From Flectonema sp. DT1601 (lineage: Eukaryota), in contig OZ025796.1 of NCBI GenBank assembly GCA_964019425.1, forward strand, positions 1,178,001-1,242,000: 64,000 nt of DNA. Reading direction: 5' to 3'. Below the pieces are notes generated by a model that saw only the letters and a list, made by a program, of their open reading frames with translations, did not search any database and had not been told where the DNA came from. This document shows, piece after piece, positions 20,105-22,029 of the stretch (positions are counted from its first letter, which is position 1; each line of letters begins with the position of its first letter). Both the position numbers and the translations under genes were made by a program.

Positions 20105-22029
20105 CCCATTAAGGACGGGGGGTCCACTACAGTGGTTATTTTGAAATTTTATTTTCGCTAAGGGGAAAACCCGGCTAACGCTACCCAGGGGGGGTGTAAT
20201 CGAGGCCGTTTCGCGACGAATCTTGGGTGGGATGGCGTGGTTCGCTGTGTTTTTATTCATGAAATTCAAAACTAATAATCAAAATTTTACCACCTAACAA
20301 GAAGTTTCGTCTGCCTGTTGAAATTGATACAAGTTTGGCGTCCTATGAAAGTCTGATGATGATGGATTCTGTATCGGAGTCGTCATCTGACAGCAACACA
20401 GCAAAGGTATCAAAGTGGGGGGGCAAAACCAAGAGAATCCCCAGGGAAAAACAGAAAGGATCTACCCAGAGTGTGAGCGACTTTAATGAAATGAGCGAAT
20501 TGAAGGCATCCAACTCATTTTCACTGATCATGTGCTTAAAATGATATTTCGACACACTCTTACCTACCCGATTGACAAAGAGACGTCCATGAAGTCACTA
20601 GAAGTTGGTGAACTGAAATGCTTTCTCCGTAATTTCCACACTGCTAACAAACACATTCCTGCTTCTTATGTCCATAGTCTTGTTAAACCCCATAATAATA
20701 AAGGGCATTGGGTGACGTTTGACAATTTCAATTCGTCATACGCATTTCTTGTTTTGATGTTGGCGAAAGGGTTCCACTGTGTTGGAACAGCCTGACGGAA
20801 CAGAAAGGGAGTTCTGTTGATGTTACAAAACCGAAGGCTACCCCCTACTAAGCAAATCGGAAGTGAAAGAAAGACCGAAGAATCTTTCTGCTTCTTACCT
20901 TCAGTCAAGCACGGCATCCACCATATAAAGTGGAGAGACTCAAAGGATGTGCATCTTTTCAGTACTCTTCCCCGCAGGGAGAGCCAAGGGTCGAGAACCC
21001 TGGAGATTACCTTTGTTTCTTTTTGTGACTGGATTGCAGTGGCGCAACCCATCACCCCACCTGTTGGTATCTTTTTATTTTTTTTATTTAAAGAAAAAAG
21101 CAGGCTAAGTCGCCTGAGCTGGCATCGCCAGAATATTTAACTTCACATGGCAATGTCAGCTCGTGAAGGGATCCAGTTGGATCAAAGGTTTTCTCCCCCC
21201 ACTCTATTTATCGTCATTGGTGCGCACCTTCGAACAGGAAGGCCAACATTGACGGAATTTTTTACTTCTCTTCCCAAGGTTGAACCTTGGGAAAAAAACA
21301 AACAATAAACACAGTGTAGACAAACACCCGCCGGACATCTGCAGAGCAGCGATCGATGTCGATGTCTTCGTTGTCGAACTTCCTGGCGTTTATGTTTTTG
21401 TTTTTAACAACAACACAACACCAACTAACAGGTTTGTCTCATTGCCCGTTCTTTCTTGTTTCCCTTTGCCGCCGGAAGAACGAAGGTCGACGGAGGTCCG
21501 AAGCATTGCTTGCGATGATGTTCCGGTATGTGTTGCGTCTCTGTTATTTGTTTGTTTCAACTCAATTGGTTCATCTCAGGTTTTAGAAGTCTTCGTCCTG
21601 TTCGATGGGAAGGGCCTGAACCAAAAGTTCACTGCCCCTATTCCTCTCCCAAATTTCTTATTCACGTGAGCACCGTGTCGATGTATATCGCTGGATTAGG
21701 AAGAGAAATAAAAAAGAAAAAGTGCCGATCAAACTACCGTGCAAGTAGACAGGTACACCAAGACGATGGGAGGTGCTAACCTGATGGATAGCGTGAAGGC
21801 AAGGGCGAACAGAAACCTTCAAACTAAACGATGGCATCTAAAGGTTTTCGACTACTTGCTGAAAGTTTCGATGTTCAACACGTTTACCCTTCAAAAGAAA
21901 TGCGGTAAGGATACTGGTACCTACATACGGTATGTGGAGGAGCTCGCTATGCAACTCGTCAGTGACGGGACGTCGAGAGACAAGACAACCAATACTACAT
22001 CTACTATTGACTCGGGTTCGCACTTTTCA
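20105..22029 (+). mobile_element. piggyBac copy 2, 3'-truncated, carrying a 691-bp insert
   Basis: TTAA at 20101-20104 plus left TIR. Colinear with copy 1 except the insert at 20973-21663. Homology ends at 22029 with no right TIR. Confidence 0.93.
20973..21663 (+). mobile_element. Non-coding, highly structured insertion; divergent homolog of part of the 1,540-bp repeat unit
   Basis: Absent from piggyBac copies 1 and 3, no clear TSD. Shares ordered blocks CAGGCTAAGTC, TAACTTCACAT, GATCCAGTKGGATCA, GTGCG, CCAACMTTGAC and the CAAAA hairpin with unit positions about 740-1201. Confidence 0.8.

Follow-up and report, generated by a model that had tools for sequence, protein, structure and literature searches.

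What kind of element is the 691-bp insert that interrupts a decayed piggyBac transposon at this locus, and by what means does it move? In the window, the 64-kb stretch of DNA that we analyzed, the left third is rich in repeats and a same-strand gene cluster begins at about 24 kb. Judged by its sequence the host belongs to the diplonemids and is a near relative of Flectonema neradi, because one of the three window proteins looked up belongs to a 90% cluster with a protein of that species. The piggyBac copy that carries the insert (20101..22029, + strand) is 3' truncated and differs by just 1.5-1.9% from both sister copies (6373-8116 and 37587-39330); because the three copies are so similar, the insertion is recent. 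The earlier note had described the insert as absent from both sisters, and both indeed show an empty site, CCC-TT-ACG. A 141-bp satellite (5820-20098), each unit of which contains long A/T runs and forms three small hairpins, houses two piggyBacs and a MULE transposon (17390-19820), which has long, repeated inverted ends and a MULE domain at 19183-19521 (E 7e-9). At 22592-22755 a facing pair of 10-bp tandem runs, TTCACACATT and GTGAAAAATC, is possibly the end of another element, and the broken frames at 23400-23850 presumably resemble a Polinton-type DNA polymerase, a likeness with no supporting Pfam match. Telomere repeats are absent from the window.

The insert, here called E1 (20973..21663, + strand), is a full element, and the site that it fills lacks the TT of the empty site and has no duplication. 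Most of E1 is present in eight of the 18 sequencing runs listed (6 studies), and its ends outside piggyBac are identical in all four runs examined (4 studies). Since these ends recur outside piggyBac, E1 moved with self-defined ends, and the earlier claim of mobility holds. At this second locus the flank is visible and identical in three runs (X1, X4 and X5; 3 studies), and contigs span the locus unbroken in three runs, which is consistent with one locus; in run X2 the E1 ends are seen and the flank is not among the matches listed. The flanks of the second locus are absent from the 64-kb window. A 5-bp direct repeat, GCTTG, lies at the E1 ends there, with one additional A on the right, and because it sits exactly at those ends the second locus is probably itself an insertion. 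The target change differs between the two known sites of E1 (two sites only), being a 2-bp loss at one and a 5-bp repeat at the other, so that the previous statement of no clear TSD is right for the piggyBac site and wrong for the second locus. The empty piggyBac site is also seen in runs X1 and X5, for which the sister copies may be the source. E1 varies among strains at six substituted sites, five at predicted paired positions and one unpaired; four of the five paired-site differences retain the pair as G-U on the + strand, and the one at 21605 breaks it.

A homologue of E1, here called E', is located inside a 1540-bp tandem unit at 729..1201 (+ strand), with further copies at 2269-2741 and 3809-4281 and a last copy at 5349..5819 (+ strand), where the array halts 2 nt before the E' 3' end and adjoins the 141-bp satellite. 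The spacer of the unit, X (1202..2268, + strand), is more variable among strains than E' (12 substitutions in 610 nt against 2 in 461 nt, p 0.03), a comparison that amounts to one test only, since the runs share variants. The unit is tandem or circular in three of the four runs examined; unit positions 1190-1256 are swapped for 56 other letters in three runs, and in run X1 a degenerate remnant of an E'-like 3' end sits in a different flank. An origin of the unit as a mitochondrial chromosome was rejected because one uniform contig crosses the variable linker in each of three runs. E' is bracketed by a 9-bp direct repeat, TTGGCATCA (710-718 and 1217-1225), 10 nt to the left and 15 nt to the right of its ends; this bracket is equalled by 8 of 5000 random window pairs and could be an old duplication with extra bases. 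X also contains a second folded region (1490-1860, z -2.8), which has no counterpart in E1.

E1 and E' (unit 729-1201) are colinear over their full length. The ordered short blocks that had been proposed as common to the insert and the unit are present: CAGGCTAAGTC at 884/21101 (unit/insert), TAACTTCACAT at 926/21138, GATCCAGT at 958/21170, GTGCG at 1002/21220 and CCAACMTTGAC at 1023/21243, with exact matches of the first two found only in the four units and the insert. The length difference between E1 and E' resides in a variable middle, which in E1 runs from GTGCG to YTCAG (21220..21579, + strand) and consists of AC-rich and U/G-rich tracts that are weakly intron-like. Sequence alone is modest evidence for kinship, with two shared 11-mers arising in 3% of shuffles (n=500); the score of the ordered chain was reached in one of 500 shuffles and in none of 150 real tiles. 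Structure is the stronger evidence. The insert and unit segments fold with z of -4.2 and -5.0, and the TAACTTCACAT arm folds equally well in just 3 and 2 of 2000 shuffles in which the block was held fixed. Covarying stems, as the earlier note had suggested, are found in 11 manually placed helices: pairing is possible in E1 as well as in E' at 61 of 63 positions, with 19 positions changed on both sides and seven on one side, a count that describes a hand-placed model of the only two core-bearing members and is not a significance test.

The structured core of E1 (21003..21196, + strand) comprises an outer arm, a CTGGAT/ATCCAG helix, a TTGC/GCAA hairpin, a CCTGT/GCAGG hairpin, a CTAAGTC junction and a long arm with a TAACTTCACA loop. 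The upstream CTGGAT pairs with ATCCAG in both E1 and E', a helix that had been missed previously. Because of this pairing the GATCC-AGTK-GGATC block, present as described, is probably not a conserved hairpin. The CCAACMTTGAC match likewise stands in position but is ambiguous, because the CAAGG/CCTTG hairpin of the unit fits 21275-21289 equally well. Additionally, a pairing of the 5' GCARG with a stretch ahead of the terminal hairpin was added to the model. A candidate pseudoknot (21040..21115, + strand) would join loop 21040-43 with 21112-15, and unit 852-855 with 895-898; it has three double-sided changes and a null of 21 in 20000, evaluated post hoc. Covariation of the core extends over about 200 nt, located 30-230 nt inside the 5' end. 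We take + provisionally as the folding strand. A fair comparison of the strands gives six G-U against four A-C, E1 core folding reaches z -7.5 on the - strand against -5.9 on the + strand, and the energies of the terminal hairpin do not separate the strands.

The 3' end of E1 consists of a terminal hairpin, GGGC-C-TGAAC-CAAAA-GTTCA-CT-GCCC, and a 26-nt tail (together 21612..21663, + strand). When the 3' ends of E1 and E' were combined into a profile, it matched three more places (E 0.002-0.005). These are copies of E3, a U-rich repeat of about 390 bp that has no core and ends in GGGC-A-GGAGC-CAAAA-GCTCC-CA-GTCC. All three lie on the + strand: copy 1 at 9170..9563 (hairpin 9513-9538, 25-nt tail), copy 2 at 11177..13373 (hairpin 13323-13348), which is split by a TIR element at about 11300-13085, and copy 3 at 15876..16278 (hairpin 16228-16253). 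The TIR element, about 1.8 kb between TA runs, appears Tc1/mariner-like by eye and gave no Pfam match in the frames tested. The 141-bp satellite accompanies E3, and a scrambled relative of X (13374-14032), with a 69-bp piece inverted, lies directly behind copy 2. Across the three families the upper stems read TGAAC/GTTCA, TTAGC/GCTAA and GGAGC/GCTCC. All nine stem pairs are kept in all five rows, three of which are E3 copies, with three double-sided changes. The hairpin pattern occurs eight times in the window, always on the + strand, against 0.01 expected, and a window scan with its covariance model gave no further copy below E 0.25.

The tail past the hairpin measures 26 nt in E1, 25 nt in E3 and 25 nt in E', where the end at 1201 is model-placed. 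The 3' ends read TTATTC, AACTC and AATTC; the right flanks of E1, E' and E3 begin with A, A, C, T and T and have no base in common, and a poly(A) tail, a trait of ingi/L1Tc derivatives and of CRE/SLACS, is absent from the ends of all three. The E3 copies have three different right flanks and share at least three upstream satellite units in conserved order. The 3' end is therefore fixed in E1, E' and E3, whereas a fixed 5' extent goes with possession of the core and is seen for E1 only. The mobility signal had been placed in the core; this does not agree with the core-less E3, which terminates at the same distance past its hairpin, and the terminal hairpin at the 3' end is the better supported candidate. 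The TTCA of the conserved loop (21138-21148) equals the last bases of E1 plus the next A (21661-21664), with TCA in E'; this match recalls loop-templated priming, a resemblance noticed post hoc.

The shared blocks are not codons of a decayed protein gene, because their spacing of 42 against 37 nt breaks the reading frame, and no above-chance Pfam or PDB match was obtained; a GOLD-like peptide in frame 21253-21666 failed the same comparison. A scan of the window with Rfam 15 at gathering thresholds returned one tRNA only, in agreement with the previous assessment that no known family is involved, and relaxed scans (insert and unit E<=10, E3 E<=5) gave weak, unrelated matches only. Descriptors that follow the general rules of each fold were used for the hammerhead, HDV-like, twister and pistol ribozymes and for group I and group II introns. 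A relaxed descriptor of the HDV-like ribozymes of R2 and Pr77 (the nested double pseudoknot P1-P2-P3-P1.1-P4 with J4/2) has no homologous match in both elements, where 9 and 15 nt are present and the fold needs about 22, so that the double pseudoknot could not be built here either. The three-stem core boxes of a hammerhead or retrozyme are absent from either strand, circular permutations included. A group I intron was rejected: E1 and E' do not both retain a P7 partner for the R-like block, there is no Rfam match, and the E1 junction bases do not fit an exon-final U and intron-final G. A group II intron was also rejected, as GTGCG is internal (21220/1002) and not 5', the terminal hairpin has no triad, and the domain V pattern matches X only, neither E1 nor E'. 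Twister and pistol failed or applied to one element only, and a resemblance to the P4 of RNase P/MRP also failed. A U2 snRNA-like stretch and a putatively Pr77-like 12-mer (unit 975-986) were rejected too, each occurring in the unit only. A spliceosomal intron starting at GTGCG is a weak lead, because host introns are 16-28% GC and mostly begin with GTATG, while the E segments are 41-43% GC. The three host introns considered (28146-28224, 29966-30044 and 48957-49052) are about 80-100 nt long, U-rich and then A/AAC-rich, with a terminal ACAG and, in two of three, a GTATG start.

Scans for homologues gave 2, 6, 0 and 0 matches in viral contigs, 4 in metagenomes and 0 and 23 in prokaryote genomes, all treated as chance, and phage blastn gave none; these collections contain few diplonemid sequences. 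One of two viral matches and all four metagenome matches were inspected by eye and have no common helices, and the CTGGAT partner is absent from all 29 pattern matches (6 viral and 23 prokaryote). With a core HMM the best match beyond the known copies was no better than E 0.03. The literature searched holds no description of the element; the repeat supplement of one study (Additional file 1, PMC10161547), which lay outside that search, may bear on the point. We conclude that E1, E' and E3 are real, recently active, low-copy structured non-coding mobile elements.

In our proposal, to which we give an even chance, they are non-coding RNA parasites of a reverse transcriptase (RT) that binds the 3' hairpin, like R2 SIDEs. 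A trans-acting RT would copy their RNA into DNA by target-primed reverse transcription: the + strand RNA would be cut from a polycistronic transcript, the RT would bind its 3' hairpin, and reverse transcription would begin at a set distance from the hairpin, no poly(A) tail being needed. The E1/E' core would make or protect the exact 5' end, or would serve as a second protein-binding domain. The contrast between E1 and E3 suggests that the core likely sets the exact 5' end; that it does so by self-cleavage there is somewhat doubtful. Since E3 has no core, it would carry upstream sequence along, as in its three copies with common upstream satellite units. The X+E' tandem would have arisen later, by amplification or read-through. 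The partner enzyme would be an R2/CRE-like or Penelope-like RT encoded outside the window, in which we found neither an RT-like motif pair nor an autonomous RT element ending in the hairpin.

An RT is favored because the target changes vary, the right flanks share no base and the core covaries over a long range. The recurrence of the E1 ends at a second locus, the strain differences that retain pairing as G-U and the lower substitution count of E' relative to X also speak for the proposal. E1, E' and E3 also share the trait of R2-type SIDEs of a structured common 3' end with a fixed 3' junction. R2 SIDEs are described as having no requirement beyond a ribozyme at the 5' end and structure at the 3' end, with a free middle (PMC3414825, in part), and R2 5' junctions as carrying 2-3 bp deletions or duplications (PMC3774820, in part). 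D. papillatum is reported to have RT genes of the LINE, SLACS and R2/jockey types (PMC10161547, in part), and tandems with an internal start would suit Penelope-like elements too (PMC8557442 and PMC11167929, both in part). Several observations count against an RT: the core begins only some 30 nt in from the 5' end, extends to about 230 nt and fits no known ribozyme fold; E' follows X in the tandem array, an arrangement not directly accounted for by an RNA that cleaves at its 5' end; poly(A) is missing, the helices are hand-placed and the better E1 core fold is on the - strand; and satellite carriage with a 3' hairpin is typical of Helentron derivatives too. A bolder version, which we hold tentatively and consider rather doubtful, is that the core represents a self-processing ribozyme of a new class and, together with the CAAAA hairpin, a kind of mobile RNA not described before, primed by a rule of its own. 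A multi-way junction with the CUAAGUC strand and a loop pseudoknot would then free tailless RNA from polycistronic transcripts, and copying would start at a point 25-26 nt beyond the hairpin, where the UUCA in the conserved loop, equal to the last bases of the element, might act as the seed.

The main rival, rolling-circle mobilization, is unlikely. If the elements were non-autonomous relatives of Helitron/Helentron-like HUH rolling-circle transposons, the hairpin would be the ssDNA end signal and the core a passenger RNA, the upstream satellite would have been captured, and the tandem arrays would stem from read-through. The hairpin, 25-26 nt from the 3' end, does lie where HINE palindromes are placed (8-35 bp), TT is the target in piggyBac, and E' has a 7-bp inverted repeat at +2 and about 60 nt from its 3' end; HINEs are described as carrying tandem repeats (PMC4067079, in part), and Helitron ORFs are reported in D. 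papillatum (PMC10161547, in part). However, in the same partial account HINEs leave their targets unmodified, with T on both sides (PMC4067079), whereas here TT is lost, 5 bp are repeated elsewhere and the right flanks are A, C or T. Subterminal repeats of 11-15 bp are absent, the best being 7 bp, and 200 nt of internal covariation would be left unexplained. A canonical Helitron was rejected, as its 5'-TC and CTRR-3' ends in an AT target are not found. Solo LTRs or TRIM-like elements with TG...CA ends, in which E would be the LTR and X the internal part, so that the array would be an LTR-internal-LTR succession, are very improbable: GCARG does have a TG before it, both in the unit (729) and in the flank at the second E1 locus, CA is readable at the right end, and TGG lies near both E' ends, 3 nt from the end on the - strand, but the duplication would be just 3 bp (4-6 bp expected), the piggyBac copy has no TG, no polypurine tract is seen by eye, and E3 ends in TC followed by C, T and T.

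E1 and E' as host non-coding RNA genes, with the piggyBac insert a tailless retrocopy of the mature RNA, would account for the same flank of the second E1 locus in three runs (3 studies) with unbroken contigs and for the conservation of E' relative to X. We consider this improbable, given the direct repeat exactly at the E1 ends, the same end in the core-less U-rich E3 and the decayed E'-like 3' piece in another flank in run X1. A mobile non-canonical intron (introner) of euglenozoan type would be excised through end pairing and short direct repeats; direct repeats and pairing between the ends are reported for such introns (PMC12621601, in part), and E1 offers both the 5-bp repeat at the second locus and a 5' GGGAGAG able to pair with CTCTCCC near its 3' end. 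This pairing, however, is not kept in E', the known copies lie in repeats rather than genes, the 5' end of E3 is not defined, and Diplonemidae introns are described as mostly canonical (PMC12621601, in part), which makes an introner quite improbable. Chance likeness among AT-rich, strongly folding repeats could draw on the two shared 11-mers in 3% of shuffles and on the hand-chosen helices, but it is exceedingly improbable in view of the ordered chain, the anchored helix tests, the CTGGAT partner (0 of 29), the common hairpin and the common end distance.

Diplonemids are among the most abundant marine protists. One end signal in three unalignable families offers a precise probe for the mobilizing enzyme, and in the E1/E' core some 200 nt form a conserved RNA fold that matches nothing in Rfam. 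If the core self-cleaves, a ribozyme class would be added; if it does not, it would still define a new RNA signal by which retrotransposition proceeds with no poly(A) tail. The mobile elements of diplonemids are described as uncurated (PMC10161547, in part).

Several known systems resemble parts of this family. The NARTc/RIME/SIDER elements of trypanosomatids, with the Pr77 HDV-like ribozyme, are likewise short and non-autonomous, carry a structured RNA that is conserved, and reside in a euglenozoan genome with polycistronic transcription (PMC4035085 and PMC12278014, both in part); in contrast to Pr77, the E1/E' core is not within the first 77 nt and fails the HDV descriptor, and there is no poly(A) tail. 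Trypanosomatid elements are given as INGI, CRE, VIPER and TATE, with poly(A) tails on INGI and CRE (PMC12278014, in part), and none of the four fits E1, E' or E3. Non-autonomous Penelope-like elements (MRC1) and animal retrozymes share head-to-tail tandems, an internal RT start at a stem-loop, variable sequence past the end and possibly retained introns (PMC8557442, PMC11167929 and 10.64898/2026.07.22.740005, all in part). Unlike them, E1 and E' have no hammerhead, which Naiad/Chlamys also lack, and the 5' end of E1 is exact at two loci; the term PLE is absent from the part of the D. papillatum supplementary material searched. HINE/DINE-1 Helentrons have a near-end 3' hairpin, carried tandem repeats and, as here at one target, TT (PMC4067079, in part), whereas here the target is modified, T flanks and long subterminal repeats are absent, and there is a large covarying internal fold. 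The R2 SIDEs and R2/R1 hybrid SIDEs of Drosophila are, like E1 and E', about 0.5 kb long and non-coding with an unrelated middle; they have structured 5' and 3' domains, compensatory changes and low copy number, and we count their dependence on co-transcription as a further likeness (PMC3414825, in part). E1 and E' differ from them in having no HDV-like ribozyme, poly(A) or rDNA target. The family is a member of no family that we tested, yet it appears to work like a SIDE.
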